The position numbers were made by a program, and so were the translations under genes. A DNA stretch of 64,000 nucleotides from contig CAMDUE010000002.1 of NCBI GenBank assembly GCA_945877575.1, forward strand, positions 197,861-261,860, read 5' to 3'. A model generated the notes under the pieces. It was not told where the DNA came from and did no database searches. It saw only the letters and a list, made by a program, of their open reading frames with translations. Source of the stretch: Chitinophaga pinensis (lineage in GTDB: Bacteria > Bacteroidota > Bacteroidia > NS11-12g > UBA955). Each line of letters opens with the position of its first letter. Position 1 is the stretch's first letter. This document shows positions 16,260 to 55,116 of this stretch, in pieces.

Positions 16260-16386
16260 CCGAGTTTGGCGCCGTTTTACTTCCGAGTTTGGCACTGTTT
16301 TACTTCCGAGTTTGGCGTTTTTTTAAAATACCCCCTACCAACTACCAGGTACCATCTACCAGGTACTAGGTACCAGGTACCAGGTA
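16260..16386. repeat. 23-bp direct repeats (CCGAGTTTGGCRCYGTTTTACTT, about 2.6 copies) followed by a TACCAGGTA / CTACC hexamer array
   Basis: Directly visible in the divergent intergenic region. The array is the reverse-strand version of the GGTAGN family found elsewhere in the window. Confidence 0.8.
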
Positions 16387-18397: not shown

Positions 18398-18421
18398 ACG
18401 ATTATTTAGAGTCACTTACAA

Positions 18422-19810
18422 ATGCATATTATTTATTATTATATCAGATCAAACAAGTACTATATAATTTATTTTTTAATCAGAGTCATATCAATTTTTT
18501 TTCTTTTTAATTTAGCTCCTGATATTTCTCGACAGCTGAATGTTACAATGGTTCTTAAGAATCACGGAGCATATGGTTTAAAAATGTTAAACATTATTAC
18601 AAAAACATATGAAATTTCGCCATATTATTCTCACCCCCCATTTTTATCTTTAATAATTTATTTAATCGATTTTTTATTTAATAATATTATCTATTCTACG
18701 GTTTTTTTGGGAATAATATTGGCTGCAATAGAAACACAAATGGTCGGAAAAATTTTAAAGAAATTCGTATATGTTGATAATCAATTTATAATAGTGTTTT
18801 TATTATGCTCACTTTATATAGGTCATATTGACAGGGGTACTATATCTGATTATTTTTCAATTGTTCTTGGATTGTTTCTTTTCTGGCAAATATTGAAATT
18901 GATTGACAAAGAAACCATAAATTTTTTAAATACAGTTATTGTAATACTATTAGTACCTTGTTCGAAATATAGTCTATTTCCGGTTGTAATTTCATTTACT
19001 TTAATATATTTTTTTATAAAAATCCGACGCAAACAGTTATTCCAATTTGAAAGTTTTATTGTAGGATTATCATCTTTATTTTCACTGTTGATACTTATAT
19101 ACTTAAAAGCCAAAGGTGTCAATAATGTATTAAATGAAGATAACCAATTATTTCTGGATTTATACAACATCTCTAAAGTGGATTATTTTTGGTTTCATTT
19201 TGGTTTGGAAATTGATAGATTTTATAAACATTTAATGTGGTTTTCAGAAAAAAAATTAGATGTTAAAATATGGTACTGGTATTTTGGTCAAATTTTTGGT
19301 GTAATCACTGTTGCAATCGTTGTTTCGAAATCTAAAAAATTTATTTCTGAGAATAAGGTTCTTTTGTATAGTCTGATAGTTTTTTCTATTTTCCAATATA
19401 TCTTTTTATTTCTCCTTCAAATTACAACACCTCCCCAAGAAGGTGTTCATTATGGGGTTGATAATTTATGTTGGGTGTTTTCTGAAGAAGCTCGCTATTA
19501 TAACTATTTATCACTGCTTTGGTTTATTGTACTTGTTATAGGTTTACTTGGTTTTAAAAATAATTTTTATCTAGGAATATTAGTTCTATTAATAACTTTT
19601 GGTTATGCTAAAACAACGTATGCAAGATCAAATGGATTTAGTGAAATTAAATTTATACGATTGAGTAAACAATTTAATTATGCAAATAATATTTTAAATC
19701 CTACAAAGAAAGGTTGTTCAGCTTCTGAAGTTAATTGGCCCGATAAAATAGATAAGGAAATTCTATTAATATTTGGTGTAAAAAAAGTTAACATTAAAGT
19801 TAATCATTAG
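18422..19810 (+). CDS. Polytopic membrane protein of unknown function (possible GtrC/ArnT/Wzy-like)
   Basis: Very AT-rich ORF with more than 10 predicted hydrophobic helices. Start codon uncertain. Confidence 0.4.
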   Translation: MHIIYYYIRSNKYYIIYFLIRVISIFFLFNLAPDISRQLNVTMVLKNHGAYGLKMLNIITKTYEISPYYSHPPFLSLIIYLIDFLFNNIIYSTVFLGIILAAIETQMVGKILKKFVYVDNQFIIVFLLCSLYIGHIDRGTISDYFSIVLGLFLFWQILKLIDKETINFLNTVIVILLVPCSKYSLFPVVISFTLIYFFIKIRRKQLFQFESFIVGLSSLFSLLILIYLKAKGVNNVLNEDNQLFLDLYNISKVDYFWFHFGLEIDRFYKHLMWFSEKKLDVKIWYWYFGQIFGVITVAIVVSKSKKFISENKVLLYSLIVFSIFQYIFLFLLQITTPPQEGVHYGVDNLCWVFSEEARYYNYLSLLWFIVLVIGLLGFKNNFYLGILVLLITFGYAKTTYARSNGFSEIKFIRLSKQFNYANNILNPTKKGCSASEVNWPDKIDKEILLIFGVKKVNIKVNH

Positions 19811-19872
19811 TGATTTAGCGGTTTAACATCCAAACCTTTAAAAACAAATACTTTTATTAAAGATCATACATT

Positions 19873-20703
19873 ATGTCAAAAGATTTCCTGTTTAGCATTG
19901 ATCTTGAAGATCCAAGAGAAAATATTTGGAATAAGGACAGATACGAGGATCGTGTCAATCTAAATGTAATGAAATTATTGGATTGGTTAGAGAATAATAA
20001 TTCGAAGACTACTTTTTTCGTTGTTGGTAAAATAGCAGAGAGATATCCTGATTTAGTAAAACAAATATTTATAAAAGGACATGAAATAGCTTGCCATTCA
20101 TATTCTCATATTCCAATAAACCATTTAGGTAAAAAAGAATTCGAAAATGATCTTGTGCGCAATATTGAAGCAATAATAAATTGTGGTGTACCGAGTCCCA
20201 TAGGGTTTCGGGCTCCCACATTTTCCTTGATTGAAAGTTCATTCTGGGCATATAATATTCTCCGAAATAATGGTATTAAATATTCTAGTTCTGTACTACC
20301 AGCTAAAAATCCACTTTTTGGAATACCAAATTTCGGGCAACAACCTAAATATATTGATGGAATATTGGAAATTCCTGTCACTATTAGTAATTTCCTCTTC
20401 TATAAACTTCCAATTGCTGGTGGTATTTATTTACGGATTTTGCCCAAGCATATTATTTTGGCTAAAGCGCGTAATTTTCTTAGTACAAATTACCCATTAG
20501 TAAGTTATATACATCCTTACGATATAGACGTTAATCAAAATTATTTTATGCATGAACATATCAATAATCACATTTTAAATTATTTAATGTACTTTAACCG
20601 AAAAAATACTTTATTGAGGTTGGACTCATTTATTGATTTGGATTATAATATAATAACATATGAGAGATTCTTCAGAGATCATTTATCAAAGAATATCAGC
20701 TGA
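19873..20703 (+). CDS. Polysaccharide deacetylase family protein (NodB-like / DUF3473-like)
   Basis: N-terminal FSIDLEDP motif. FVVGKIAERYPDLVKQIFIKGHEIACHSYSH. Confidence 0.6.
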   Translation: MSKDFLFSIDLEDPRENIWNKDRYEDRVNLNVMKLLDWLENNNSKTTFFVVGKIAERYPDLVKQIFIKGHEIACHSYSHIPINHLGKKEFENDLVRNIEAIINCGVPSPIGFRAPTFSLIESSFWAYNILRNNGIKYSSSVLPAKNPLFGIPNFGQQPKYIDGILEIPVTISNFLFYKLPIAGGIYLRILPKHIILAKARNFLSTNYPLVSYIHPYDIDVNQNYFMHEHINNHILNYLMYFNRKNTLLRLDSFIDLDYNIITYERFFRDHLSKNIS

Positions 20704-21487
20704 TTCTAAATTTATCAAAAGGCAACTTGAACTTTTGAATTTAGTATTTGGAAAGAATTCTTTTTCAAGTAATTTTTTAAATTGGTTGTATCATGAGAAT
20801 CCAAATGGTAACATATTTGGTTTTGATGCATATTATAGAGAGAAATTAGTAGGTCATTATGCTACAATTCCTGTCTATTATTTTTATGGGAATAGAACTA
20901 TAAAAGGTCTTTTATCTCTAAATACTGCAACTCATCCAGATTTTCAAGGAATGGGTATTTTTACTAGATTGGCGAAATTTACTTACGACGTAGCCCAAAA
21001 AGAAGGTTATAATTTTGTGATAGGCGTATCAAATAAGAATAGTACATATGCTTTTATTAATAAACTTGATTTTAAATTAGTGAAGCCACTTGATGTGTAT
21101 ATTAATTTTTTTACGCGTTCACATAATACAAAAGTCAAAATTAATTTTGGAGGACAAAGAAATTTTGAATTTACTAAATGGAGACTATCAAATCCCAAAA
21201 GCAGTTATTTCGATTGTAAGGATATGGTGGTAAGCAAAAAGTATTTTGGATTATTAACAATACAAGTTTCCAAAAATTCAAGGGTAATTGAGCTGGACAA
21301 ATGTAATTGTATTATACTGCTTAGTGTAGGTATCAATAATCATCCAAAATCATTATTTTCGTTTAAATTACCTGAGTTTTTAAAACCTTCTCCTTTAAAT
21401 TTAATAATTCGCTCCCTTTCTACTGATTTTGCAATTCCAAACCATAATGAAATTTTATTTGAAAATTTTGATTTTGATGCTTTTTAG
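20660..21487 (+). CDS. GNAT-fold acyltransferase (FemAB-like?)
   Basis: GNAT motif A FQGMGIFTRLAKF. Confidence 0.45.
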   Translation: MRDSSEIIYQRISADSKFIKRQLELLNLVFGKNSFSSNFLNWLYHENPNGNIFGFDAYYREKLVGHYATIPVYYFYGNRTIKGLLSLNTATHPDFQGMGIFTRLAKFTYDVAQKEGYNFVIGVSNKNSTYAFINKLDFKLVKPLDVYINFFTRSHNTKVKINFGGQRNFEFTKWRLSNPKSSYFDCKDMVVSKKYFGLLTIQVSKNSRVIELDKCNCIILLSVGINNHPKSLFSFKLPEFLKPSPLNLIIRSLSTDFAIPNHNEILFENFDFDAF

Positions 21488-21564
21488 ATTCTGATAAGAC
21501 ATTTGTTTCGAGCGCAATTTTTTAGGTTAGAGAATTACAAAGTATGTTTCCATATTTGATAATA

Positions 21565-21599
21565 TTTGTTAAGTACTGCAAGAGATTATTGTATTTTTG
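21565..21599 (+). promoter_or_regulatory. Candidate Bacteroidetes sigma-A promoter (TTTG ... TATTTTTG)
   Basis: TAnnTTTG-type -7 element TATTTTTG at 21592-21599, about 27 bp upstream of the ATG. An upstream TTTG is present, but the spacer is slightly long. Confidence 0.25.
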
Positions 21600-21625
21600 A
21601 TATTTTACACCACTAAATTATAAAC

Positions 21626-22516
21626 ATGCAAAGCGTATCTATAATTGTTCCTTGTTATAATGAACAAGATAATTTGCCAAAGTTGATTGATAAAATCGCT
21701 AAATTCATTTCAGATAACAAAGATTACTATGTTATTTTTGTTAACGATGGTAGTAAAGATAATACATTGGAATGCTTGAAAAACAGTATTAACGAAAAGT
21801 TTGTAATAGTTTCGCATTCGAGAAACAGAGAATATGGTGCGGCTATAAAAAGTGGAATATTATCTGCAGAAACTGATTTTTGTATTACAATTGACGGTGA
21901 TGGTCAACATGATTTGCAAGACATACCAAAAATGTTAAATCAATTATTGGAATCAAAATCCGACATGATTGTTGGTAATCGAAATGGGAAGGGTTCTAGT
22001 AGTTTTAGGAATCTTGGAAAATGGATGATCCGTAAGTTTATTACAACCATGACAGATTTGTCAATTGAAGATGTTAATAGTGGAATGAAGTTATATAGAA
22101 CGGAAGTTGTAAAGTCACTGATAAAGTGGGCACCTAGTGATATGTCCTTTTCAGAAACAATAGTAATTTTACACAACCATTTTCGATATAAGATTTCAGA
22201 ATTGGAAATTAATATTTTCAATAGGGAAGCTGGGAAGAGTACAATAAACATTAATACAGCAATTAAAGCAGTAAAGGAAATTGTTTTTTTGCTAATTAAT
22301 TTCTTTCCATTTCGTTTCTTCTCGTTAATAGGAACTATTTTTTTCATATTTGGCCTGTTCTGGAGTTTGCCATTTTTAATAAACGGTGAAGGATTGACCA
22401 TTGGTTCAGGTTTTATATTCTCGAGTTGTGTATTAATCTTTTTATTAGGAATAATATTGCAAACTTTGACTCGTATGAAGTTTGAAGATTATTTACATGT
22501 TAATAGTAAGGTATAA
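21626..22516 (+). CDS. Polyprenyl-phosphate glycosyltransferase, GT2 (GtrB/ArnC/DPM1-like)
   Basis: VSIIVPCYNEQDNLPKL...FVNDGSKDNT...DGDGQHD. Two C-terminal TM helices as in GtrB/ArnC. Confidence 0.75.
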   Translation: MQSVSIIVPCYNEQDNLPKLIDKIAKFISDNKDYYVIFVNDGSKDNTLECLKNSINEKFVIVSHSRNREYGAAIKSGILSAETDFCITIDGDGQHDLQDIPKMLNQLLESKSDMIVGNRNGKGSSSFRNLGKWMIRKFITTMTDLSIEDVNSGMKLYRTEVVKSLIKWAPSDMSFSETIVILHNHFRYKISELEINIFNREAGKSTININTAIKAVKEIVFLLINFFPFRFFSLIGTIFFIFGLFWSLPFLINGEGLTIGSGFIFSSCVLIFLLGIILQTLTRMKFEDYLHVNSKV

Positions 22517-22599
22517 TACTATTGTGTAATTTATGATAAATTCATTCATAATTTATTAAAAGGTTTATTTTTAATTCAAATGAAATCTGATAACCTATT

Positions 22600-23961
22600 A
22601 TGAATCACAGGTGCTTACATATTCTCAATCGTTTTGGATTTGGCACTAGCATTCAATTTTTGCTGAATTATGAATTATCTGATTTACTGATTGATGAAAA
22701 TAAAATGAAATTTTGGTTGATTAATGAAGTTCCGGAATTTGTAGAAATAGAGAAAGTCAACAAAGAATTTTCAACTGAAGCAAAAATAGGCTCAAATGAA
22801 AAATGGAGAAAAAGATGGCCTGATGCAGCTGTGAGAACCGATTGGATTCAATTCATGGTTGAATTAGAAAATCCTCTTAGAGAAAAAGCTGCGCTATTTT
22901 GGAATCATGTAGTACCGATTTCAGTGGGGATTTGGGGTTTTGCACAGAATTTATTGATAGATTCATACCGAAAGAATGCTTTTTCAGATTACAATGTGTT
23001 ACTGAAGGATGTTTTAGCCTCACCTTGCGCGATGAAGTTTCTAAATGCCTATCATTCCAAAAAAGATAATCCCAATCAGAACATGCCCCGTGAATTGCTT
23101 GAACTGTTTACGGTAGGTATTGATAATTACGGTCAGAATGATGTTTTGGAAATTTCGAGAGCTTTTGCTGGCAGAAGAACAGTAAATCCGGATAATTTTA
23201 AAGTCCCTTATCCTTATCAACTGTATATTGATGAAAATAATTCAGACAGGGGGGAGAAGACTATTCTAGGTCAAACTGGAAATTGGGATGGAAATGACGC
23301 AATCGACATTCTCGTAAATTCAAAACATACTCATGAGAGAGTTGCTCATTTATTTATGAGGTTCTTTGTTTCAGACAAACCAAAAGATGAGCATGTTGAT
23401 GAATTGGCAGCATTTACATTTTCTAAAAATAGAATTAATTTTATTGATTTGGTTCAATACACAATCAATTCAGAATGGTTCTTTCGAGATGAATATATTG
23501 GAAATAAAGTAAAAACACCCGTGGAACATTGGGTTGGATTTCAAAAAAAGATGGGATTAAAAGTTTTAACCAGCGAATTACATTCAAATGTATTAAGACA
23601 GTTTGGTCAGGATGTATTTTTCCCCATAAATGTTGGTGGATGGCCTTGGGGTGAAGGTTGGTTAAATGGAAATTTACTCATAAACAGAGTGTTTTTACCC
23701 AAAGCAATTTTAGAAATCGCCCAAGAAAATCAACAGGAAATAGAAATGTCTTTCTCTGAAAAGGTAACATACAGAACATTCAAAAAACACCTATTGGGAA
23801 TGCGATTTGAGAGTGCTGTGTTATTGAATATCAGAGAAGTTATAAATATTCTCAAAGAAAATAATGTTAAGTTGTCCAGTTGGGTCTTGTCTAGAAACAC
23901 AAGTTTAAAAAACGACGAAATTAGTTATTTAATTACTCATCAATTATTTCAATATCATTGA
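22600..23961 (+). CDS. DUF1800 family protein
   Basis: HILNRFGFGTS and ELFTVGIDNY...ARAFAGRR motifs characteristic of DUF1800. Paired with the downstream DUF1501 gene. Confidence 0.6.
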   Translation: MNHRCLHILNRFGFGTSIQFLLNYELSDLLIDENKMKFWLINEVPEFVEIEKVNKEFSTEAKIGSNEKWRKRWPDAAVRTDWIQFMVELENPLREKAALFWNHVVPISVGIWGFAQNLLIDSYRKNAFSDYNVLLKDVLASPCAMKFLNAYHSKKDNPNQNMPRELLELFTVGIDNYGQNDVLEISRAFAGRRTVNPDNFKVPYPYQLYIDENNSDRGEKTILGQTGNWDGNDAIDILVNSKHTHERVAHLFMRFFVSDKPKDEHVDELAAFTFSKNRINFIDLVQYTINSEWFFRDEYIGNKVKTPVEHWVGFQKKMGLKVLTSELHSNVLRQFGQDVFFPINVGGWPWGEGWLNGNLLINRVFLPKAILEIAQENQQEIEMSFSEKVTYRTFKKHLLGMRFESAVLLNIREVINILKENNVKLSSWVLSRNTSLKNDEISYLITHQLFQYH

Positions 23962-25076
23962 AAAGAAGTGCATTCATAAAGATAGTTGGGAGTGGCGTTG
24001 TTGCAGGGTCAATCGGTTCAATGTTTGAATCCTGCTCTGTAAATCAGACCAAGAAATATTCTGATGATGTATTGGTAGTAGTGAGAGTGAAAGGTGGAAT
24101 GGATGGATATCATTTGATTTCTCCTAAGGAGAATGATTTGCTCCTAAAATTACGGCCCAATATTCAAAAGTCTATTGAACAAAAAGGAATAAATTACCGG
24201 AATAATTGGTTTATAAATCCAAATTTTGCTGTAATAGCAGATCTAAATGAGAAGGGTTGGCTTCAAATCATCCCAAATGTTGGATATTCTGATTATAATA
24301 GATTGTCTCATTTTAAAGCACAAGATTATTGGGAAACAGGAAGTGTTGTAGGTGATAAAGTTCAACATAGGACGGGGTGGGCTGGAAGGTTAGTTGATAA
24401 CAATATTATTCAAGTTAATGGGAACAAATCACCTATTTTAATAATTGACAATGAGCAAACATTGTTTGATAAAGGAGAAAATAGTTCAGGAGTGTATTAC
24501 ACCCCATTTAATACCTATTCTAATTTATTTCCCTTAGTTGAGGATTGGATTAATGAGAATAAAAATAGCTTAGAGAATAAGCAGATTTATCAGAGAGTCG
24601 AAGAGCAATATAGAATAAATCAATTATTAAAAGAAACAAGTCCAAATTCTGTGTCGTCCAAGGATATGAAGGGAAAGTTGGATCAGATTGCTGATTGCAT
24701 TGAGAAGGAATTGCCGTTTAGGGTATACAATTTAACTCAAAGTGGATATGATACTCATCACAAACAGACAATTAGATTAGAGCCATTAGCCTTAGACTTA
24801 TTCAATGGATTAAATCAATTTGCCGAGCGTCTTCAACAGGGAAATAATTGGGGGAGAGTAAAGGTATTGGTATACACTGAATTTGGAAGGACAATTGCTG
24901 AAAACAGTAATGGCGGAACAGATCACGGAACGGCAAATCATACATATTTATTAGGTGGTAATCTTGGAGATAAATGGTTAAATCCTTCTTTTGAATTTAA
25001 TACAATGAAAATTGCGGGTAATGATTATTTGACAATCAATGAGGATTTTAGAGAAATATACAAGAGTTTAATTTGA
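23958..25076 (+). CDS. DUF1501 family protein (sulfatase-like, Tat-signal-like N-terminus)
   Basis: NGGTDHGTANHTYLLGGNLG motif. N-terminal MKRSAFIKIVGSGVVAG. Confidence 0.6.
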   Translation: MKRSAFIKIVGSGVVAGSIGSMFESCSVNQTKKYSDDVLVVVRVKGGMDGYHLISPKENDLLLKLRPNIQKSIEQKGINYRNNWFINPNFAVIADLNEKGWLQIIPNVGYSDYNRLSHFKAQDYWETGSVVGDKVQHRTGWAGRLVDNNIIQVNGNKSPILIIDNEQTLFDKGENSSGVYYTPFNTYSNLFPLVEDWINENKNSLENKQIYQRVEEQYRINQLLKETSPNSVSSKDMKGKLDQIADCIEKELPFRVYNLTQSGYDTHHKQTIRLEPLALDLFNGLNQFAERLQQGNNWGRVKVLVYTEFGRTIAENSNGGTDHGTANHTYLLGGNLGDKWLNPSFEFNTMKIAGNDYLTINEDFREIYKSLI

Positions 25077-25081
25077 TTTAG

Positions 25082-26116
25082 TTATTCCATTCTCTCCCAA
25101 GTGCTTTTTAGAACTTTTGTTTTGAGGCCGTGTTTTTCGGCGAGGTAGCGCGCGAAGACGGCAGAGTAGCCGTGGGTGACGGAAATGGTGTGGGCTTCGG
25201 TGGCGAGGCAGGCGGTTTCGAGTTCTTGGAAGTCGGCGTGGTCGCTGAGAACGAATCCGCGGTCAAAGTTTCCCCAACGGCGGGAACCGCGAAGGGCCAT
25301 CCAGCCGGAGCAGGAAATTGTTAGGTGACGAGGGTCTTGTGGCGAGGGACTGGTGTCTATATTTTGGGTGTTAGGGGTCGGGTGTCGGGATTCGGAGGGG
25401 GTCGGGTTACGGGAGTCGGTGGGGTTGCTGGAGATGAGGATGTGCTTGGAGGTGGGGCGTTGGTTTTTGGTGGTAGGGTAAATGGGGGGAAGGAAGATAT
25501 TGAAGCCGTCACGGTTGAGGGCTTGGGTTGTGTCGGCGATGGTTTTGGTGACGTAGAGGGGGAGGTCTTGGAGGTGATGGATGAGACGCTGGGCTTTTCC
25601 GAGGGAGTAGGCTGAGATGATGAGGTTTTCATCGTTGTTGTGGAAGTATTCGCGGATGTCGTTGAAGATATCGGCTTGGGGTGTCCATCGAAAAACGGGG
25701 AGTCCGAAGGTGCTTTCGGTGATAAAGTGGTGGCATTTCACGGGTTCGAATGGGGTGGAGATGCCGTCATTGTTGAGTTTATAGTCCCCCGAAACGACCC
25801 AAATTTCGCCTTGATGTTCTAGTCGGATTTGCGCGGAACCGGGTATGTGTCCGGCGGGATGAAAGGAAATGTTGACGCCGTTGATGCTGATGGTTTGGCT
25901 GAAGGGAAGGGTTTGGAGGGAGATGTGTTGACCGAGACGGAGTTTCAGGATGTGTTCGTTGCCCTGGGCGGCGAGGTAGTGTTTGTGGTTGGGTCGGGCG
26001 TGATCAGCGTGGGCGTGGGTGATGAGGGCTTTGTTGACGGGCTTGTGGGGATCTATGTAGACATCGGCGGCGGGGCAGTAGAGGCCGGATGGGGTGGAGG
26101 TTAGTAGTTGGTACAT
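25082..26116 (-). CDS. Ligase-associated DNA damage response exonuclease (MBL-fold)
   Basis: GLYCPAADVYIDPHKPVNKALITHAHADHA N-terminus and HxHxDH metallo-beta-lactamase motif. An ATP-dependent DNA ligase gene lies nearby. Contains an in-frame low-complexity insert. Confidence 0.7.
   Translation of the reverse strand: MYQLLTSTPSGLYCPAADVYIDPHKPVNKALITHAHADHARPNHKHYLAAQGNEHILKLRLGQHISLQTLPFSQTISINGVNISFHPAGHIPGSAQIRLEHQGEIWVVSGDYKLNNDGISTPFEPVKCHHFITESTFGLPVFRWTPQADIFNDIREYFHNNDENLIISAYSLGKAQRLIHHLQDLPLYVTKTIADTTQALNRDGFNIFLPPIYPTTKNQRPTSKHILISSNPTDSRNPTPSESRHPTPNTQNIDTSPSPQDPRHLTISCSGWMALRGSRRWGNFDRGFVLSDHADFQELETACLATEAHTISVTHGYSAVFARYLAEKHGLKTKVLKSTWERME
25325..25480. repeat. G-rich heptamer array (GGGTGTC/GGGATTC/GGGTTAC ...) embedded in-frame in the exonuclease CDS
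   Basis: Seen directly. Encodes TDSRNPTPSESRHPTPNTQ... on the minus strand. Confidence 0.7.
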
Positions 26117-26160
26117 GGTAGATGGTACATGGTAGATGGTAGATGGTACATGGTAGGGGG
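26101..26160. repeat. GGTACATGGTAGATGG hexamer array at the exonuclease start
   Basis: ggtacatggtagatggtacatggtagatggtagatggtacatggtagggggtagggg. Confidence 0.8.
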
Positions 26161-26171
26161 TAGGGGATATT

Positions 26172-26210
26172 AAAAAAACCCCGAGGTGTTGCCCCGGGGT
26201 TTTTTGTTTT
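26172..26210. terminator. Bidirectional intrinsic terminator hairpin
   Basis: A7-CCCCGAGG-tgttg-CCCCGGGG-T6. The 8-bp stem has one mismatch. The element lies just downstream of the S46 peptidase stop on the minus strand. Confidence 0.6.
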
Positions 26211-26222
26211 TGGTGGGTTTGG

Positions 26223-28391
26223 TTATTTCACCAAGGTCATTTCGTTGACGATGTTGGTGGCGCCGCCGAGTTTGTCGATGATGAACAACACGTAGCGTAT
26301 GTCAACGGAGATGGTGCGCTGTAGGGCGGGCATGAATCCGAAGTCAGAAGCGATGGCTTCCCAGTTTCCGTCGAAAGCAATTCCTATAAGCTCGCCGCGG
26401 CCGTTGATGACGGGTGAACCCGAGTTTCCGCCGGTGATGTCGTTGTTGCTCAAGAAGCAAGCGTGAAGATCGCCGGTAGTGGGGTCAGCGTATTGGCCGA
26501 AGTCTTTGTTTTTAATTAATTCTATCAATGCATCTGGTGCGTCGAATTCGAAGTCGCCGGGGATGTATTTTTCCATGATGCCGCGAGAAGAGGTGTAGTA
26601 GTTGTACTTTACCGCGTCTTTGGCGTTGTAACTTTCAATGGTTCCGTAGCTCAAACGCATGGTGGCGTTGGCATCAGGAGCGGTTACTTTTTCGGGATAC
26701 ATTTCCGCTTGAGCGGACAAAAACAAACGGTTAGCGCGGTCCAAACGACTGTTGATGTCAGCGGTGATAGGCGCTAAGTCTTTGCGTAGGATGCTCACAT
26801 AGCCGTTTACGATGGCGAACAACGGATCTTTTGCAAGTGCAGAAGCATTAGCAGAAGACATTAATTTTTTGAGCTTTACAGGATTTGAGAAAGCGCTCTT
26901 TGCCCAAACTTGGTCAGCCATTGCTTGGTAGTTTTTACCGTGCTTGGCAGCTAATTTCTTCAAATTTTCAGGCAGGTATTTGTTGTCTAAATCCTCCAAA
27001 AAGTGGCGGAAAATCACTGCAATTACTCGGCGTTCGATGTCGGAGTTGAATTCTTTGTAATTTTCGTCAATGCCGGCAGCAAATTCTGCGGACATGGCTT
27101 TTCCTTTGTCGTTGGTTTTGTCAAGAAGGGCTGTGTAAATGCGCATGGCTTGCATGGCATTCATCATGGGCACGCTGTTGGCGATACCATCTTGAAGGTA
27201 GACAGAGTATAGTCCGTATTTGTTAAGGTCTTCGTAGGCGCGGTCGTAAAGGGAGGTCACTTCACCGTAAACTTCTTCTTTTTTATTGTCGCGAACCCAC
27301 TGTTCGAAGGCGCGTTCTTGAGCTTTGCGGCGGGCGTAAATTTCGGGTTTAGAAAGTTCTTTCGCTTCACCGTTGAACTTGTTCCAGTAGTTTCCGATGC
27401 CGGCCAATTTCGCAGAGTACATCAAGCGTACGTCTTTGTCAGCCTTCATGTAGGTTTCGTAAACGTCCATGATGTCGCGGCGCAATTGCACACGCATTGG
27501 ACGCTCTTTTCCTGCCAAGTATTTGATTCCCTCGGAATAAGTATAGCGGGTGGTGCGGCCGGGATATCCCATGGTCATAGCAAAATCACCTTCTTTCACG
27601 CCTTTCAAGCTCACCGGAAGGTAGTGCTTGGGGGTGAAGGGCTTGTTGGACGTGCTGTAATCAGCGGGCTTGTTGTCGGCACCTGCATAAACGCGGAACA
27701 TAGAGAAGTCGCAGGTATGGCGTGGCCATCTCCAGTTGTCGGTTTCACCTCCGAATTTTCCTACGTTTTCTGGGGGAGTACCCACCAGGCGGATGTCGCG
27801 GTACACCTCGTAGTACATAGCAAGGTATTGGTTTCCGTTAGAGAACACGGCGATATCAACTACGTAGTTCTTTTTCTCGTCGCCAAGGGCTTCAACCAAC
27901 GCATTTTGGGTGGCTTTGAAGTTTTCGGCAACGGCTTTGGTGCGAGATGCTTCGTCTTGGTTGATGCTGGTATTTGCAAGAACGCGGCTGGTAACGTCTT
28001 CAATTTTGCGGAGCAGTCCGATTTGGAAAGCGACTTTACGCTCTTCAGATTGGGACTTAGCCCAGAATCCGTTAGAAAGGATATTGTCTTGAGGGGTAGC
28101 GATGCTTTGGATGGCATCATAACCACAGTGGTGGTTGGTGAGGAACATACCTTGTGAGGAGATGATTTCACCGGAGCAGAACATTCTGCCGTTTTGCATG
28201 AGTCGAACGATGGCATCTTTGGTAGAAGCATTGTTTATGGAGTAAATATCTTCTGCGGAGAGTGTCATTCCGCGGGCCTGCATTTTATCTTGAATTTTAG
28301 ACAAGAGGGTCAGTGGCCACATCCCTTCATCGGCGCGCAAGCTAAGGAAAGAGGTTGCGGCGAGTAATAAACTGAGGAATTTTTTGCTCAT
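26223..28391 (-). CDS. S46 family dipeptidyl-peptidase (DPP7/DPP11-like)
   Basis: Signal peptide then ADEGMWPL. TNHHCGYD (His). GGNSGSPV (Ser). 722 aa. Confidence 0.85.
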   Translation of the reverse strand: MSKKFLSLLLAATSFLSLRADEGMWPLTLLSKIQDKMQARGMTLSAEDIYSINNASTKDAIVRLMQNGRMFCSGEIISSQGMFLTNHHCGYDAIQSIATPQDNILSNGFWAKSQSEERKVAFQIGLLRKIEDVTSRVLANTSINQDEASRTKAVAENFKATQNALVEALGDEKKNYVVDIAVFSNGNQYLAMYYEVYRDIRLVGTPPENVGKFGGETDNWRWPRHTCDFSMFRVYAGADNKPADYSTSNKPFTPKHYLPVSLKGVKEGDFAMTMGYPGRTTRYTYSEGIKYLAGKERPMRVQLRRDIMDVYETYMKADKDVRLMYSAKLAGIGNYWNKFNGEAKELSKPEIYARRKAQERAFEQWVRDNKKEEVYGEVTSLYDRAYEDLNKYGLYSVYLQDGIANSVPMMNAMQAMRIYTALLDKTNDKGKAMSAEFAAGIDENYKEFNSDIERRVIAVIFRHFLEDLDNKYLPENLKKLAAKHGKNYQAMADQVWAKSAFSNPVKLKKLMSSANASALAKDPLFAIVNGYVSILRKDLAPITADINSRLDRANRLFLSAQAEMYPEKVTAPDANATMRLSYGTIESYNAKDAVKYNYYTSSRGIMEKYIPGDFEFDAPDALIELIKNKDFGQYADPTTGDLHACFLSNNDITGGNSGSPVINGRGELIGIAFDGNWEAIASDFGFMPALQRTISVDIRYVLFIIDKLGGATNIVNEMTLVK

Positions 28392-28413
28392 GGTGCGAAG
28401 ATAGTAAAAATTA

Positions 28414-28560
<147 letters not shown>

Positions 28561-28642
28561 CGGATAGTGTGGGGAAGTGGTTTTATGTTTGCGGTTTGAA
28601 GGCATGGGATATTTGTACGGATAAAATACGTACATTTGTTGA

Positions 28643-28933
28643 ATGGAAAATAAGATGGAACGAATTGAGTTGAGGGTGAGCAAGTCGGAAAAAATGATAT
28701 TACAGCGGGCGGCAGAAATATTGGGTTTCGGGTCATTGAGTGCCTTTTTATTATCGGAAGTTCGTCCTAAAGCAGAGGAGGTAGTGAAGAGAGAGAGTAC
28801 AATAAGATTAAATTTGGAAGACTCTTTCAAGATCATGGAGTATCTTGAAAGGGGGGAAGTGGAGAATGGTGCTTTGAAAAAGGCGAGGGAAATGTACGGT
28901 CAAGTGGTGAAAGATGAAGGAATTCCGATTTGA
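28643..28933 (+). CDS. DUF1778 family antitoxin (TacA-like, RHH)
   Basis: RIELRVSKSEKMILQRAAEILGFGSLSAFLLSE. 96 aa. Overlaps the downstream GNAT gene by 20 bp. Confidence 0.7.
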   Translation: MENKMERIELRVSKSEKMILQRAAEILGFGSLSAFLLSEVRPKAEEVVKRESTIRLNLEDSFKIMEYLERGEVENGALKKAREMYGQVVKDEGIPI

Positions 28934-29402
28934 GAAACTGGATGTAAAAAGGCACGACAGAAAATCATTTGTTTCTGGAAACGAAGAATTAGATCAGTTT
29001 TTTCAAACCCAGGCCAGACAGCAAATGGAGAAGCGTTTGAGTGTCTGCTTTGTCATGTTAAATGGCGGATCAAAAATTATTGGATTTTATACATTAAGTT
29101 CTGCAAGTGTAGAAGCAAATGAAAGTAGAATTTCGAGTTCAAAATATGTAAGCTTACCTGTGGTTTTGATTGGTAGACTGGCTGTACATTCTCAGTTTCA
29201 AAAGCAGGGTTTAAGTGGATTGATGTTGGTTAATATCATTGAAAGAGTTAGAAAATTATCGGAGAGTGAAATTGGGGTTAAGGGCATTTTCGTTGAGCCC
29301 AAATCCGAGGAAATCTCATTGTACTACCTTAAATATGGATTTTTGAAGCTGGAAAAAGGGGTGTTTTATCCTTTCGGTAAAAATTCAAGTAATTCTGGAT
29401 AA
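28914..29402 (+). CDS. GNAT family acetyltransferase toxin (TacT-like)
   Basis: 162 aa GNAT, translationally coupled to the DUF1778 gene. N-terminal KLDVKRHDRKSFVSGNEELDQFF is typical of TacT/KacT. Confidence 0.7.
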   Translation: MKEFRFEKLDVKRHDRKSFVSGNEELDQFFQTQARQQMEKRLSVCFVMLNGGSKIIGFYTLSSASVEANESRISSSKYVSLPVVLIGRLAVHSQFQKQGLSGLMLVNIIERVRKLSESEIGVKGIFVEPKSEEISLYYLKYGFLKLEKGVFYPFGKNSSNSG

Positions 29403-30905
29403 CAGTTCTTCAAGGGTGGCGATGTCTTTGACGGATTTATCGCGGCGCCAGCGCACGATGCGAGGGAAACGAACGGCGATGCCGCTTTTATGTCGGGTGC
29501 TACGATTGATTCCTTCGAAGGCGAGTTCGAAGACGAGTTCGGCGTCTACACTTTTTACAGGGCCGAAACTTTCACGGGTGTGGAGTTTGATCCATTTATT
29601 GACTTCTAGAATTTCAGCGTCAGTGAGTCCGGAATAGGCTTTAGCAAACGGTACGAGTTCCTCGCCTTTGTAAATGGCGAAGGTAAAATCGGTATATAGG
29701 TTGGCGCGACGACCGTGTCCGCGTTGGGCGTAGATGAGAACGGCATCAACAGTGTCTGCGTCGACTTTCCATTTCCACCAATCGCCGCGTTTACGTCCAA
29801 TTCCATAGGCTGAATCTTTGCGTTTGATCATGAGTCCTTCGCTTCTTATTTGGGAGGATTCATTTCTGATTTTCTGGAGTTCTTCAAAGTCTTTGGGATG
29901 AAAAACGGGACTGGGCTGTATGTGAGTGTTTGGTGATGGGAATAGATTGTCTAGTTGTTGTCGACGATTGAAAAGGGGTTCCTGGCGAAGGTCTTGACCG
30001 TTAATTTCGAGGAGGTCATAGGCTAAAAACACGACAGGGTAGTCTGTGAGAGTTTTTTTTCCGGGGGACTTTCTTCCGAGTCTTTTTTGCAGGTCTTGAA
30101 ACGGTCTTGGGAGTTGAAGTTCAAAGTCCCAACAAAGGATTTCCCCATCGAGGGCGCCCGAAAAAGCATCCCAAGAAAGCATGGAGGAAGCAAGTTCAGG
30201 AAATTGGTGGGTGATGATGTCTTCGCCGCGTGACCAGAGGTTTATGGAGTTGTTGCGTTTGATGATTTGCGCGCGGATGCCATCCCATTTAGGCTCTATT
30301 TGATAATTTGTAAGTGGATGAATATCTGTTGATTGAGGATCTTCATTGAAGGGAGACGCAAGGAAAAAAGGGTATGGTTTGGTAGAATTTAGATGGGGTT
30401 TTGGTGAGATGATGAGGTCTTGGTAGTTGGAGTTTTGCACGGTCCAATTTCCCATCAATCGGAGGTTGAGCTCGTCTTTTTCGATGCCTGTGTGAGCGTG
30501 AAGGGCTTGAACGAGAAGTCCTTGAGAGACGCCAAGTCGGAAGCCGCCGGTGAGGAGTTTGATTGATGGTAGTTGGTAGGGGGTAGAGGGTAGGGGGTAG
30601 AGGGACTGTGAGTTTTGGAGGATGAGGTGGATGGTTTCGGCGAGGTCACCTACTACGGAGTAGGATTCTTCGAAGAGCCAATCGGGGATTTGGGCGGTTT
30701 GGATGGCCCATTGTTTGAGTTCGGATAGTTTGATTTGTCGTTTGGGTCGGCGGCCGGTGAAGATTGCGATGACCATGAGTTTGTCAGGGTCTGGGGCTTG
30801 GTTGAAATAATGGGTTAGGGCTTGCACCTTACGGGAGTTTTTGGTGGTGGAGTCGAGTTCGTAGAAAAGTTTGGAAAAGAGATCAGGAACTTCGAAGATG
30901 TGCAT
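29385..30905 (-). CDS. ATP-dependent DNA ligase (ligase-associated DNA damage response type)
   Basis: N-terminal FSKLFYELDSTTKNSRKVQALTHYF. Motif I EPKWDGIRAQI (the adenylated Lys). 506 aa. Contains an in-frame GGTAGN array. Confidence 0.8.
   Translation of the reverse strand: MHIFEVPDLFSKLFYELDSTTKNSRKVQALTHYFNQAPDPDKLMVIAIFTGRRPKRQIKLSELKQWAIQTAQIPDWLFEESYSVVGDLAETIHLILQNSQSLYPLPSTPYQLPSIKLLTGGFRLGVSQGLLVQALHAHTGIEKDELNLRLMGNWTVQNSNYQDLIISPKPHLNSTKPYPFFLASPFNEDPQSTDIHPLTNYQIEPKWDGIRAQIIKRNNSINLWSRGEDIITHQFPELASSMLSWDAFSGALDGEILCWDFELQLPRPFQDLQKRLGRKSPGKKTLTDYPVVFLAYDLLEINGQDLRQEPLFNRRQQLDNLFPSPNTHIQPSPVFHPKDFEELQKIRNESSQIRSEGLMIKRKDSAYGIGRKRGDWWKWKVDADTVDAVLIYAQRGHGRRANLYTDFTFAIYKGEELVPFAKAYSGLTDAEILEVNKWIKLHTRESFGPVKSVDAELVFELAFEGINRSTRHKSGIAVRFPRIVRWRRDKSVKDIATLEELLSRIT
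30568..30605. repeat. (GGTAGN)6 array in-frame inside the ligase CDS
   Basis: ggtagttggtagggggtagagggtagggggtagaggg. Encodes PLPSTPYQLPS on the minus strand. Confidence 0.8.
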
Positions 30906-30906
30906 G

Positions 30907-30921
30907 TTGCGAATTTCGCAA
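30907..30921. promoter_or_regulatory. Perfect palindrome TTGCGAATTTCGCAA (TTGCG-W5-CGCAA), candidate operator
   Basis: Lies 1 bp upstream of the ligase ATG and 65 bp upstream of the wecB ATG. The same half-sites occur at 38981 and 39022. Confidence 0.4.
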
Positions 30922-30986
30922 ATTTTGGCGGGGAGTTTTGTGAAAAATGCAAGAACTTAGAAAATTGAATGACTTAACTTTGCACC

Positions 30987-37060: not shown

Positions 37061-37202
37061 TGCGGTTGAGATTCTGGTAGTTTTTAGTAAGAATCCAACA
37101 GGATATTTATCTGATTTTGAATTTTGGTTATTGACGGGTGTCTTTGCTTTGTCAATGGTGATGTATTTCCGTGTGAAGCGGGAGCGCAAGAAAACCTTGT
37201 GA
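37008..37202 (+). CDS. Small two-TM membrane protein (hypothetical)
   Basis: 64 aa. Two hydrophobic helices and a basic C-terminus KRERKKTL. Overlaps the LptC-like ORF tail. Confidence 0.3.
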   Translation: MIKYHVLALLSLVAAAISAVEILVVFSKNPTGYLSDFEFWLLTGVFALSMVMYFRVKRERKKTL

Positions 37203-49341: not shown

Positions 49342-52300
49342 TTAAAATGCTGCTTCAACGCCAATTAGGAACCGGAAATCTACGAAGTTTTCTTGTGGAT
49401 TCACGGTATTTAGGAAAAATGGAAAATCAATTCTATATCGCATGGTTCTTGGAGAGTAAGAGTAGTTGCGATTGATGATTTTATTGTAATTATTGATGTT
49501 GATCCACGTTCCTATTCCGGCATCTGCGAGCAGGTTGCTGTTGTACCAATTATTTGATTTTTGGATTGCGATCAAACCTGCATCAGCGAATAAATAGGGT
49601 GAAAAAGAAATGAATTTATTTTTCAAAAAGGGCGAAAGTAACTTTCCGAAGTGCCATTCTGTGTTGATAGATATACCAGAAGTACCTCTAAAAAATGCCA
49701 TGATGCTGTCGTTTGATTTGATTCCAATGGCTCTTCCATGAAATCCTCTGAGGTTCAGTCCGCCACCTAAATGGGTGTAATTCGGTTGGATGTTTCCGAG
49801 ATTTCGAACCATCATATTTTGGAATTGAGTTTCAGGGTTGGCGCTTGATGTGTAAAGGGCTGATTCAGGTGATGGATTCGCACCTTGAGCTAATTGAGCG
49901 AATACTCTAGACTTGAAAGTGGTTGATTTAATAGGTTGTTGGTGTTTCCATTCTAGGTTAAACCAACCAAATTGTGTTTGGCTCCAAGGCGATATTAATC
50001 GGGTATCAACGGCAATGGTTCCTGACCTTGACCAACCTGAGTATTGGATGTTCCAAAACAGGTGGAAGTTGGTATTGGTTCTGTCAGACCAAGTACTTGC
50101 AGTGGGTAGATAACCATTGAAAAGGGAATTCTTGTTTATGATGGTTTCGGTGTTTGAACTAAGTGCCCTTAGGTCTTTTCCATAAAGTCCGAAGGTATGT
50201 TTCCCCAATTTCCATTTCCAACCTAGTATTGAGCTCAGACGTTGGTTTGAGGAGATGATTTCTGCAAAATATGTCCCTCCACCGCGTATGTCATGTTGCC
50301 AATTTACTAAACCATTGATGGTCTGGTGAGCGAATTTTATATAATTTAATGGGTAAATCTGATTATTAAGGGCATAATATATTCTGGCATCAAAAACATG
50401 TTTTCGGCTGGCATATTGTCCGGTAAATTTTGCACCAATCATGGTTCCAGAATACTGATTGTATGCAATTGCGGGTCTAATTAGTACTTCGTATGGTTCT
50501 AAAATATTGCTATTTGGACCTTGTCCTTGATCGAGTTTAAAGGAAATTTTCTTTTTCCAACGGTTATTCCTTCGGTCAATGTCGGCCAAAAGGTAGGTGG
50601 CGTCCAAGAAAATTTCTGTGAGTTCATGTTTGGGTTCAATGCTCACATTGATGGTAAAATCGCGGTTCAAACGTCCCCAAGAATTCCAAACCTTGGTTGA
50701 AAGCCTGTTAGGAATGATGTATTGATTTGTTGGGATGGTTAATTGGGTAAATATTAATTTTCCACTTTCGGTTCGTGTCAAAAGGTCTAAGTTCACGGGC
50801 ATGGTGAGATTTCCGTAGCGATGAACGGTGATTTTATATTGACCATTCTCGAGCTTTTTTACTTTTTTAATGCCGTAGTCAATGACTTCTTTCGATTCAA
50901 ACCATTGATCAAAGAACTTATTCAGATCAATTTGTGCTGATTGAATGACTGAATTTCGAAAATCTTCTATGTACGGATGCTTGAATTTCCATTGTTCCAC
51001 ATAGTTTTTCATGGCTATCGAGAAAATGGAATCCCCCAAGAAATAGCGCAAATTGTAGAGCATGGTAGCCGTTTTGTAGTATACATTTCCGTATCCGCCG
51101 CCATGTCCAACGGCCTCATGAAATTCATTACTATGGGTATTGAGACGTTCGTCTTCGCCATCAATGGCATCATCCAAATAGGGGCCAATGGCCCTGGAAT
51201 ATTCGGGAAATGGCTCTACTTTCAGCTCTTTCAGAGCTTCGGCCGTTAAAAATTGAGTGAATCCTTCGTCGAGAGCTGCCCGATAGGTTTCGTTGCTGCC
51301 CACCATTCCCATGAACCAATTGTGGGCCACTTCGTGTGCGATGAGTGCTCTGTGCGAGGGATAGGAACCGCCGCAGAGCGTGAGCATGGGGTATTCCATA
51401 CCATCAGCAGCGTCTGCCACCACAATTTTAGGGTATGCATACATCCCATAATTTCGGCTGTAAAAGGCAATGACTTCACTTAAATATTGCGCGGTTTTTG
51501 TCCAATTTTTGGCATTATGGGCTTGTGCGATTGCCACGCATTGAATTCCGTTCCATGTGACTTCGCTTATTCTGTAGGTTGGATCAGCTGTCCAAGCAAA
51601 ATCGTGAACGTTTTGAGCAAGGAAATGCCAAGTTTTGGTAGTTGGTAGGGGGTAGTTGGTAGTTGGTAGTTGGTAGGGGGTAGTTGGTAGGGGGGTGTTG
51701 GGTTTCGGGTTTTGGGTTTCGGGGGACGGGGAGCGGGAGTTGGGTTGGTTGATGTCAATGGCTTTTTTGAGATCATCGGGAAGTGCTTCTTCGCGGTTTA
51801 AGAGTAATCCGGTGGCTTCAACGATGTACTTTTCTGGGAGATTTAGTTTCACATCAAAGGTGCCAAAGTCGCCGTAAAATTCTTTTTCAAGGTGTTGGCT
51901 GGTTTCCCAAGTGAACTTTTGGTCATAGACGCAAATTCTTGGGTACCAATGAACACCGTTGAAATGTTTAACTCCATGATGATCAAACACTTTCATTCTC
52001 CGGCGAATGGATCCTCGATCAAAATAAGTCTTGAACCAAATTTCAAACACGCAAGAATCTCCTGATTGCAGAGGCTCAGGAAGATCAATTTTCATGATGG
52101 TATAATCAATCTGAGGATCTAAAATGACTTTTTTATAGGGTTTGGTTGATTTATTTCCTTCAATTTGAATCCATGTGATTTGTGTCCCCAAACCTTGTTT
52201 TTCGTAGTTGCCGTAGGTGGGTTTAATTTTATTTAGTTCGTAGAGTTTATCTGTTAAAGAACCTGGCTGAGTGGAGTTTTGATATAAATGAAAAAAAGCT

Positions 52301-54304: not shown

Positions 54305-54480
54305 TCCAAGGTAGTTGGTAGCAGGTAGTTGGTAGCAGGTAGTTGGTAGTTGGTAGCAGGTAGTTGGTAGTTGGTAGCTGGGCTCTGGCCCAAAACCCGG
54401 TACCCAAAACCCGAAACCCGATACCCGATACCCGATACCCGATACCTGAAACCTGATACCCGATACCCGGTACCCGATAC
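54305..54480. repeat. About 175-bp simple-repeat block: (GGTAGYWG)n then (CCCGATA/CCCGAAA)n
   Basis: Seen directly between convergent coaD and NUDIX genes. The minus strand is a (GGGTATC)n G4 motif. Confidence 0.85.
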
Positions 54481-55116
54481 CTAGTACCCAGTACCAACTA
54501 AATGCTTCTTGATGATATCGTGGATGCTGTGGTAGGACTGGAACTCAGAAGAGTTGAACCAGTCAAGTGGGGCGAAATTTGCTTCGGTGATGCCTTCTTC
54601 TTCTTGCGGTTTTAATGCGGCGGTGCCGCTGCTGTTCATTCTGTACCAGTGGGTTTCCTTTAGGAGAATGGCGTTGTCTTCGTAGTAGGCGTGGTAGGTT
54701 TCTCCGATTTTTTCGGAAATGTTGAGGTGATTGATGCCGGTTTCTTCCATCACTTCGCGAAGGGCGGCGGCAATTTGATCTTCGTGGCGTTCTATTTTGC
54801 CCTTGGGAAGATCCCAAACACCGTTGCGTTTGATGGTTAGTAATTCGTGGTTTTTGTTGAATACTAATCCTCCAGCGGCTTGAATAACGGTGTATTCTTC
54901 AATGAATTCTCTCAGTGTTTCTTGAGGTTCAGGGGTCATCAATCCGAAGGTCATGGGTTTGCCCAAGGCCTCGCTTGATATTAAGATGTTAAAACTTTTA
55001 TGGATTTCATCATCACCTATGAAATAAAAGTTTGGAATGCCTTTGAGAGCATCCAGAGAATCTGTGATGATCAACGCACCCTCATTGAAGTAGATTTTGT
55101 AAGTTTGCGGCTCCAT
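54481..55116 (-). CDS. NUDIX hydrolase
   Basis: Nudix box GKIERHEDQIAAALREVMEETGI. Confidence 0.8.
   Translation of the reverse strand: MEPQTYKIYFNEGALIITDSLDALKGIPNFYFIGDDEIHKSFNILISSEALGKPMTFGLMTPEPQETLREFIEEYTVIQAAGGLVFNKNHELLTIKRNGVWDLPKGKIERHEDQIAAALREVMEETGINHLNISEKIGETYHAYYEDNAILLKETHWYRMNSSGTAALKPQEEEGITEANFAPLDWFNSSEFQSYHSIHDIIKKHLVGTGY

Follow-up and report, generated by a model that had tools for sequence, protein, structure and literature searches.

The subject of this work is a pair of DNA repair genes in a stretch of 64,000 nucleotides from contig CAMDUE010000002.1 (positions 197,861 to 261,860; assembly GCA_945877575.1, Chitinophaga pinensis), referred to below as the window. 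One gene, exo, encodes a ligase-associated beta-CASP/metallo-beta-lactamase exonuclease, and the other, lig, encodes a LigB-type ATP-dependent DNA ligase; an S46 family peptidase gene and a toxin-antitoxin (TA) cassette lie between them. The pair is very likely a functional two-gene Exo/LigB module in a rearranged layout specific to one clade, and not a canonical operon that was recently broken by insertions. The evidence comes from the order of the genes in relatives, from the conservation of catalytic motifs and from the pattern of substitutions in both genes. The locus as a whole is largely ordinary: a clade-specific variant of a known repair module, joined by a common TA insertion and by simple-sequence repeats (SSRs) that occur genome-wide. 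Its most unusual element is a long-standing, length-polymorphic, repeat-coded replacement within the DNA-binding domain (DBD) of the ligase.

Gene order in the window and in relatives

The assignment of both genes to the ligase-associated DNA damage response (LADR), proposed in an earlier note on this DNA together with their common strand and positions (Table 1), is confirmed by the family hidden Markov models (HMMs), whose cutoffs both proteins pass. The exonuclease scores 358.8 bits on TIGR04122, the model of the ligase-associated DNA damage response exonuclease (cutoff 325), and its residues 4-341 cover positions 1-324 of the 326 in the profile. The metal-binding residues of the metallo-beta-lactamase domain (HxHxDH with the downstream His and Asp) and the beta-CASP motifs A-C are present, and the motifs HAHADH, HPAGH, SGDYK, ITESTFG, SDHAD and VTHGY are all retained in the alignment of homologues. 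The ligase scores 547 bits on TIGR04120 (cutoff 400) and 602.3 bits on NF006701 (cutoff 543). The Pfam domains PF04675, PF01068 and PF04679 are detected in it, the first with a match that spans profile positions 4-108 of 174, and the adenylation motif KxDG, within EPKWDGIR, is invariant over 40 aligned sequences (K206, D208, G209). The same note had raised the alternative of a LigD fragment. The LigD models give only 80-130 bits overall against cutoffs of 228-989 (TIGR02776, 110.7 against 373; TIGR02779, 129 against 228; NF007210, 107.7 against 989), and the domain set is restricted to DBD-NTase-OB; with scores so far under the cutoffs, this alternative is excluded.

The gene order was compared over 160 loci with relatives of the ligase, taken from one genome per species and from metagenomes. 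In 125 of these loci, exo shares the strand of lig and precedes it by less than 400 bp, which is the canonical layout, and in a further 7 it lies within about 1 kb upstream, again on the same strand. The published order of the cluster is Exo-Lig-Lhr-Core-MPE (PMC7826289; PMC7470946). In the window, the order along the coding strand is lig, S46, exo, and thus the reverse of the canonical one, with exo placed 3.27 kb downstream of lig (3268 bp between them) rather than directly upstream. The intervening 3.3 kb holds the S46 gene and an AT-rich, TacAT-like pair on the opposite strand, as the earlier note had described. Because the order is reversed, insertion into an exo-then-lig pair cannot yield this layout.

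The relatives of the window ligase point to the age of the arrangement. In a neighbour-joining tree of 165 ligases, those associated with an S46 gene form a single clade of nine, in which canonical members are entirely lacking. All members of the clade with adequate flanks (loci L003, L084, L163, L165, L166 and L167) have the S46 gene next to the ligase. Of these, L163 (ligase 95% identical, exonuclease 89%) reads wecB, a CapD-like gene, lig, S46, three glycan genes on the opposite strand, exo and an MNT-HepT pair. Locus L166 (ligase 70%, exonuclease 69%) reads wecB, lig, S46, HAD_SAK_2, MNT, exo, and L167 (ligase 54%) reads pheT, lig, one opposite-strand gene and S46, followed 80 nt on by an intact exo of 329 aa. 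The order varies further in L165 (ligase 49%, exonuclease 55%), with pheT, S46, lig, two opposite-strand genes and exo, and in L003 and L084 (ligase 57%, S46 75%), where exo and S46 share a strand and the ligase is divergent. The lig-S46-exo order therefore recurs in L166 and L167, in genomes without GGTAGNN arrays, and the synonymous divergence (dS) between the window and the 70%-identity lineage is about 0.75-0.9.

These comparisons bear on the reading that the earlier note suggests, in which exo and lig once formed an adjacent, canonical operon and were parted not long ago by a mobile segment with S46, bounded by GGTAGN elements, and additionally by the TA cassette. Such a history would account for the GGTAGNN arrays on each side of S46, for a GC skew of S46 lower than that of its neighbours, and for the TA cassette, which is truly a strain-specific insertion. 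It is extremely improbable, however, since the order of lig and exo is opposite to the canonical one, and relatives with as little as 54% ligase identity, in which the arrays are absent, have S46 in the same position. The arrays themselves are ordinary SSRs that occur elsewhere in the window, some of them within open reading frames (ORFs), and no transposase, integrase or target-site duplication was found. The shared layout of the relatives is what the earlier note had itself named as the mark of an ancestral arrangement. Since S46 adjoins the ligase throughout a monophyletic clade, it is to be regarded as an ancestral neighbour and not as an insert.

The exonucleases of the window and of L003 have derived traits in common: RR is replaced by RW in the RGxRRR motif, and an acidic C-terminal tail has been lost. 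At the C-terminus of the window exonuclease (25082-25120), as in the other exonucleases of the S46-linked clade, the tail (..TEYEGELSE..) that is seen when exo lies directly upstream of the ligase is missing. The uncoupling of exo and lig is, as judged from the compared sequences, a single old event in one Bacteroidota lineage. An ancestral exo-then-lig operon would have been rearranged once in that lineage; from then on, the ligase would have remained beside pheT or wecB and the S46 gene, with the exonuclease a few kb downstream.

Repeat-coded protein segments and the maintenance of both enzymes

The heptamer array within lig encodes LYPLPSTPYQLPS in place of a 39-aa segment of the DBD, which in other ligases lies between the GDLAETI helix and the KLITGGFR motif (native sequence, e.g., SLTYWI...ERFVF). 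To judge by the sequence pattern, the lost segment probably comprised two helices and the start of a third. Over 165 homologues the length of this segment has a median of 39 aa, and it is shorter only in the window, L083 and L163, which belong to the same species-level group; the linker of the window ligase is 14 aa long and repeat-coded. The number of array copies varies between strains, with 21 nt more in L083 and 42 nt more in L122. In public metagenomes, at least nine alleles of the linker are found, built of 7-aa units (PLPSTNY, PIPDTRH), all in frame and giving proteins of 506-535 aa; alleles with linkers of 35 aa and longer include P0241 and P0254. In the 70%-identity lineage (L166, P0123), a different and longer linker of 7-aa periodicity (SAVSxQx) stands in the same place, and because that lineage has its own linker there, the native segment must have been lost before the two lineages separated. 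A 39-residue stretch of the ligase DBD has been replaced by a repeat-coded linker, which now varies in steps of 21 nt (7 aa).

The structure of the window ligase was predicted by AlphaFold with a mean pLDDT of 89.4 and a pTM of 0.73. Confidence is low only at residues 98-110, falling below 50 at 102-106, and the rest of the DBD is modelled with a pLDDT above 80. The predicted structure of P0123 is likewise of low confidence only across its own linker. This protein had been considered as a comparator with an intact DBD and was rejected as such, since it too is without the native segment; it served only to date the loss. The ligase of L165 (6423-8162) keeps the native DBD segment and carries two other low-complexity inserts, one of them of about 30 aa between NTase motifs. 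The ligase of L003 (P0124) also has an intact DBD.

The exonuclease gene contains a repeat of a different kind. A 24-nt tandem repeat at 25374-25424 (2.1 copies by TRF) lies in a loop of the beta-CASP domain that is about 18 aa longer than in homologues and carries insertions and deletions between strains, with alleles of 321-351 aa. This repeat would form a variable surface loop. The earlier note had stated that both repair genes carry repeat inserts. Repeats are indeed present in each of them, and that part stands; the ligase repeat is a replacement of 39 aa rather than an insert.

The ratio of nonsynonymous to synonymous substitution rates (dN/dS) was estimated by the method of Nei and Gojobori. 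For the ligase, it is 0.18 against L083 and 0.09 against L163. Within the ligase, the comparison with L083 gives 0.16 for the N-terminal part of the DBD, 0.05 for residues 126-190, 0.13 for NTase-OB and 0.9 for the repeat-coded part. The exonuclease has values of 0.23 against L163 and 0.20 against L164. Values of 0.09-0.14 were obtained for wecB and pheT against L083 and L163, and of 0.05-0.07 for S46 against L163 and L164. The intact motifs and the low dN/dS together indicate that both repair genes are maintained by selection; the length changes driven by SSRs are restricted to loops that tolerate them. Both enzymes are presumably still active, the ligase in nick sealing and the beta-CASP nuclease in 5′ end resection or crosslink processing.

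A different interpretation of the same features is that both genes are in decay, as remnants of a LADR operon that has been lost. Several observations could be taken in this sense: 39 otherwise length-invariant residues of the DBD have been exchanged for a low-complexity linker, the exonuclease is without its acidic tail and has diverged more rapidly than S46 (identity to L164 of 70%, as compared with 95%), and the GC skew at codon position 3 is extreme in both genes. Loss of function could also be read into the low-complexity insert of the exonuclease and into the missing Lhr and MPE. Decay is nevertheless very improbable, given dN/dS values of 0.09-0.23 over a dS of up to 0.9, the integrity of every catalytic motif and the fact that all of the ligase linker alleles are in frame. 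Furthermore, the replacement in the DBD took place before the 70%-identity lineage branched off, and the gene was kept thereafter. Ligase ORFs of 351 and 356 aa, which seem truncated and had been considered as frameshifted OFF alleles, were rejected, because a run of N beside the array on the 26-kb contig of one of them identifies them as scaffold-gap artefacts of assembly.

It may also be asked whether the linker-length polymorphism is itself under selection, either by tuning the interaction of the ligase with DNA or a partner or by allowing escape from an inhibitor, instead of arising from neutral slippage in a dispensable loop. This proposal is improbable. If it were true, a DNA repair enzyme would have, in this linker, a contingency mechanism at the level of the protein.

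Inserted, repetitive and variable elements around the pair

Table 1. Positions of the features of the exo-lig locus, in coordinates of the window; a point marks features listed without a strand.
Feature	Position	Strand	Basis
Exo, ligase-associated beta-CASP/metallo-beta-lactamase exonuclease, 344 aa	25082-26116	-	TIGR04122
Exo low-complexity Pro/Thr/Ser loop, about aa 222-262, strain-variable	25331-25453	-	alignment, TRF
Heptamer array GGTAGAT/GGTACAT/GGTAGGG, abuts/overlaps Exo start codon	26104-26166	+	TRF, pattern search
GC-rich hairpin flanked by A/T runs, right after S46 stop; terminator-like on both strands	26173-26205	.	inverted repeat
S46 family dipeptidyl-peptidase with signal peptide, not part of the repair module	26223-28391	-	PF10459
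Composite heptamer region upstream of S46	28412-28558	+	TRF, inverted repeat, RNA fold
TacAT cassette (DUF1778 antitoxin and GNAT toxin), strain-specific insertion of about 0.82 kb	28559-29379	+	absent from close relatives
tacA antitoxin, 96 aa	28643-28933	+	PF08681 TacA1, E = 5.4e-17
Predicted GNAT acetyltransferase toxin, 162 aa	28914-29402	+	KacT 5ZGN E = 8e-14, TacT 5FVJ/6G96, AtaT 6AJM
lig, LigB-type ATP-dependent DNA ligase, 506 aa, DBD-NTase-OB	29385-30905	-	TIGR04120, NF006701
Heptamer array in ligase ORF, about aa 101-113	30568-30604	+	TRF, pattern search
lig-wecB divergent intergenic region, 81 bp, presumed ligase promoter region	30906-30986	.	ORF layout

The TacAT cassette is, on the comparison of strains, the only recent insertion at the locus. 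In nucleotide sequence, locus L083 is 94% identical to the window over the stretch that runs from 40196 to 29379, 6 nt past the ligase stop. Beyond this point, it has 16 unrelated bases and continues with the GGACTAT/GGTAGNN arrays at window position 28552, with no TA cassette. The same TA-less junction is found in L163, and the cassette is also absent between lig and S46 in L166. The insertion noticed in the earlier note is thereby corroborated: strains of 94-95% identity lack it, and its site falls precisely between the stop codon of the ligase and the arrays. The cassette occurs in two other assemblies, L002 and L169; as it is present there and absent from L083 and L163, it is polymorphic in the population. 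One of the inter-gene slots would have gained it in the window strain and in some co-occurring strains. No target-site duplication, inverted repeats or recombinase gene are evident at its borders.

In its organization, the cassette resembles the type II systems TacAT, KacAT and AtaRT, whose GNAT toxins acetylate tRNA. The likeness lies in a PF08681 antitoxin, a KacT/TacT/AtaT-like toxin and a layout in which the antitoxin comes first and the two genes overlap, here by 20 nt. Presence/absence polymorphism of the kind seen here is typical of TA cassettes. The Pfam matches of the predicted toxin to GNAT families lie under the gathering cutoff, and its closest relatives of solved structure are KacT, TacT and AtaT. 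The difference from the known systems is that the 3′ end of the toxin gene overlaps the ligase: its last 18 nt (6 codons) are antisense to the 3′ end of lig, and its last 7-8 codons lie in sequence that is also present in strains without the cassette. The two TA genes have 36-42% GC, lower than their neighbours, and the flanking repair genes 48-56%.

The GGTAGNN arrays are, by their distribution and variation, heptanucleotide SSRs and not the ends of a mobile element. A pattern of three GGTAGNN units has 25 matches in the window against 0 in shuffles, and the heptamer arrays detected by TRF have 4-12 copies. The earlier note was right in placing such repeats on both sides of S46 (26104-26166 and 28461-28519); they do not bound it as elements, because SSRs of this kind vary between strains and occur at five further sites of the window, namely 16336-16386 (in the opposite orientation), 51635-51723, 52414-52477, 54310-54381 and 54395-54481. 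The first of these is a TACCAGG array in a divergent intergenic region. The arrays at 51635-51723 and 52414-52477 (GGTAGTT/GGTAGGG, GGGTTTT) lie inside a 1068-aa M1-peptidase ORF (49342-52548, minus strand), from which it follows that repeat-coded protein inserts are not confined to the repair genes. The region 54310-54481, between cytidylyltransferase and NUDIX genes, holds 10 copies of GGTAGTT and then 12 copies of ACCCGAT. Among the relatives, a homologous array stands upstream of exo in L163, and the homologous intergenic sites of L166 carry another unit, CCAAAGA. The GGTAGNN repeats would grow and shrink by slippage throughout the genome.

Heptanucleotide repeats are a known class of long bacterial SSRs (Mrazek et al. 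2007, as summarised in PMC4679880). G-rich heptamers (GGGNATC) are placed antisense just upstream of ORFs and form G-quadruplexes in Xanthomonas and Nostoc (PMC4692102). The arrays of the window are alike in their tandem 7-nt units, mostly intergenic and near start or stop codons, in their antisense G-richness upstream of ORFs and in the variation of copy number between strains. They differ in their units, GGTAG(A/G/T)(T/G), GGACTAT and AGTCCGA, and in that several arrays are intra-ORF and change in 21-nt steps, one of them replacing a structured protein segment.

The position of the arrays near start codons raises the question of whether they are contingency switches, acting on how strongly exo and S46 are expressed or on how the ligase behaves. 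On the template strand they are G-rich, both at the exonuclease start and in the 130 nt or so before the start of S46, an antisense placement as in PMC4692102; their copy number is strain-dependent, and out-of-frame ATGs stand in the array before the start of exo. A switching role is quite unlikely all the same, because no OFF (frameshifted) alleles were seen, the arrays are genome-wide and not gene-specific, and the different unit sequence in L166 fits a neutral turnover of SSRs. The candidate mechanisms for such switching would be altered promoter or leader spacing, a G-quadruplex on the template strand or variation in linker length. A further point against such switching is the lack of conservation, even at 95% ligase identity, of the hairpin formed by the complementary arrays upstream of S46.

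This composite region consists of AGTCCGA-type units (28412-28451), GGTAGNN units (28461-28519) and GGACTAT units (28518-28558), of which the outer arrays are mutually complementary. As RNA of the minus strand (147 nt), it is predicted to fold into a hairpin of -46.1 kcal/mol (z = -8.6) with GGTAGNN in the loop. The hairpin was considered as a conserved regulatory element and rejected; its 3′ arm is missing in L163, and it is therefore not regarded as conserved. In the array before exo (26117-26166, minus strand), two ATGs that are out of frame with the gene come before its start codon and make up a short upstream ORF. The exonuclease start called in L163 is placed further into the array, so that the protein gains FPLPSTN at its N-terminus.

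The S46 peptidase matches PF10459 over positions 1-697 of 698 (E = 2.5e-210, 701 bits). On the Dpp7 equivalog model NF053519, it reaches 657.8 bits against a cutoff of 1200; membership of the S46 family (DPP7/DPP11) is supported, and identity as Dpp7 is not. It is 98.6% identical to its counterpart in L163, 94.7% in L164 and L166, and 75-76% in L003, L165 and L167. The hairpin after its stop codon has 14-nt arms, 93% complementary, and a 5-nt loop, and is also found directly after S46 in L163, although different genes come next there. The slots between the genes hold cargo that varies by strain: glycan genes, MNT/HepT, a gene of the 23S-rRNA-IVP family and, between wecB and lig in L122 and L163, CapD/GT2 genes. 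The lig-wecB intergenic region is kept in L083 and L166 and split by extra glycan genes in L122 (a CapD-like dehydratase and GT2 at 74-2081) and L163 (a CapD-like dehydratase at 1815-2846).

The neighbourhood of the exonuclease appears to be a hot spot for TA and defence cargo. In relatives, exo is flanked by cassettes of MNT/HepT, AbiEi/AbiEii and SLFN/AlbA with AAA_21 ATPases (L163, 11063-11685 and 16352-18023; L164, 3218-3499; L166, 14454-14735). In the window, exo lies at the edge of a low-GC (25-34%) variable polysaccharide island at 18400-25076, with GT2, deacetylase, acetyltransferase, DUF1800 and DUF1501 genes. The DUF1800 and DUF1501 proteins at the equivalent place in L163 and L166 are just 27-31% identical, and the island is therefore hypervariable. 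The GC content of the window is patchy, ranging from 25% to 56%. Third-codon-position GC skew is positive on the plus strand in nearly all genes of either orientation (ORFs of at least 150 aa); the skew of exo on its coding strand is -0.81 (GC3 0.68) and that of the ligase is -0.70, which are the extremes of the window. Another strain difference concerns a 0.7-kb Ion_trans ion-channel gene, which L083 (94% identical DNA), L166 and L167 have at the place of about 37194-37202 and which the window lacks.

Transcription, partner genes and meaning of the locus

The genes lig, S46 and exo are probably separate transcription units, because the conserved hairpin follows S46 and because the inter-gene slots take different cargo by strain. 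The ligase would be transcribed from the divergent region shared with wecB. S46 would have its own start region and the hairpin at its end, and expression of the exonuclease would depend on read-through or else start within the 50 nt before the gene, which contain the repeats. Both proteins may act together in trans: ends or lesions would be processed by the beta-CASP nuclease, with sealing left to the ligase. Such a division of roles between nuclease processing and ligase sealing has been proposed for the canonical cluster (PMC7470946).

The helicase and phosphoesterase of the published cluster are not encoded in the vicinity. Searches of the 64-kb window by tblastn with an Lhr-type helicase (query verified on TIGR04121, 1122 bits) and with PdeM/MPE (query verified on TIGR04123, 220 bits) gave best E-values of 1.5 and 2.2, in agreement with the earlier note, which had reported no helicase nearby. 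Lhr-Core (TIGR04121) was likewise not found in loci L163-L168. The note had contrasted this absence with the established operon, in which the partners are usually adjacent. Among the 62 loci flanked by at least 8 kb on both sides, Lhr is found within 10 kb in 23 and MPE in 17, which leaves 39 without Lhr; the loci of Rhodobacteraceae typically have an M3 peptidase downstream in place of Lhr/MPE. The absence of a local helicase and phosphoesterase is thus the majority state and not specific to the window. As Lhr and MPE accompany only a minority of the flanked loci, Exo and Lig are the constant core. In the window strain, the helicase and MPE functions would be supplied from elsewhere or would not be needed, with no Lhr or PdeM/MPE encoded locally.

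Several points weigh against the interpretation of the locus as a functional module in an old, clade-specific layout. First, the Bacteroidetes -7 motif TAnnTTTG was found in a scan only upstream of tacA (at 28584 and 28631, inside the cassette) and of wecB, and not upstream of lig, S46 or exo; a scan for sigma-70-type promoters gave no excess over shuffles. With no -7 box found, the transcription units are proposed from the hairpin and the gene geometry alone. Second, the tree that groups the S46-associated ligases is a simple distance tree without support values. Third, genes for Lhr and MPE could lie in another part of the genome, outside the 64 kb searched, which belong to a 252-kb metagenome contig (ENA ERZ27280281, k141_1150525). 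Fourth, that a ligase can be active without 39 residues of its DBD is a prediction, and the confidence of an AlphaFold model is no proof of function.

The closest known systems place the locus between two described arrangements. With the cluster Exo-Lig-Lhr-Core-MPE (TIGR04120-TIGR04123; Ejaz and Shuman 2018, cited by PMC7826289 and PMC7470946), it shares two families above their equivalog cutoffs, the catalytic motifs and a common strand within 3.3 kb. It departs from that cluster in its reversed order, in the unrelated S46 gene and TA cassette between the two genes, in the lack of Lhr-Core and MPE in the 64 kb, in the internal replacement in the ligase DBD and in the missing acidic C-terminal tail of the exonuclease. 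With the two-gene Exo-Lig modules of most Rhodobacteraceae and many Bacteroidota (e.g., L005, L039 and L042), it shares the restriction to a ligase and a beta-CASP nuclease, neither a helicase nor a phosphoesterase being encoded within 10 kb. In those modules, exo and lig are adjacent and apparently co-transcribed, whereas here they are uncoupled.

The case illustrates that the apparent splitting of an operon has to be judged against relatives, the lig-S46-exo arrangement being an old, clade-wide state. That a locus without local Lhr and MPE is the norm supports Exo and Lig as the core module. The two genes have stayed linked within a few kb and under purifying selection despite the probable loss of co-transcription, which argues for a partnership that does not depend on operon coupling. 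The ligase linker is a clear case of a coding sequence that heptanucleotide repeats have remodelled in steps of 21 nt. A LigB that tolerates a repeat-coded, length-polymorphic replacement in its DBD is, moreover, a natural experiment on a dispensable part of that domain.

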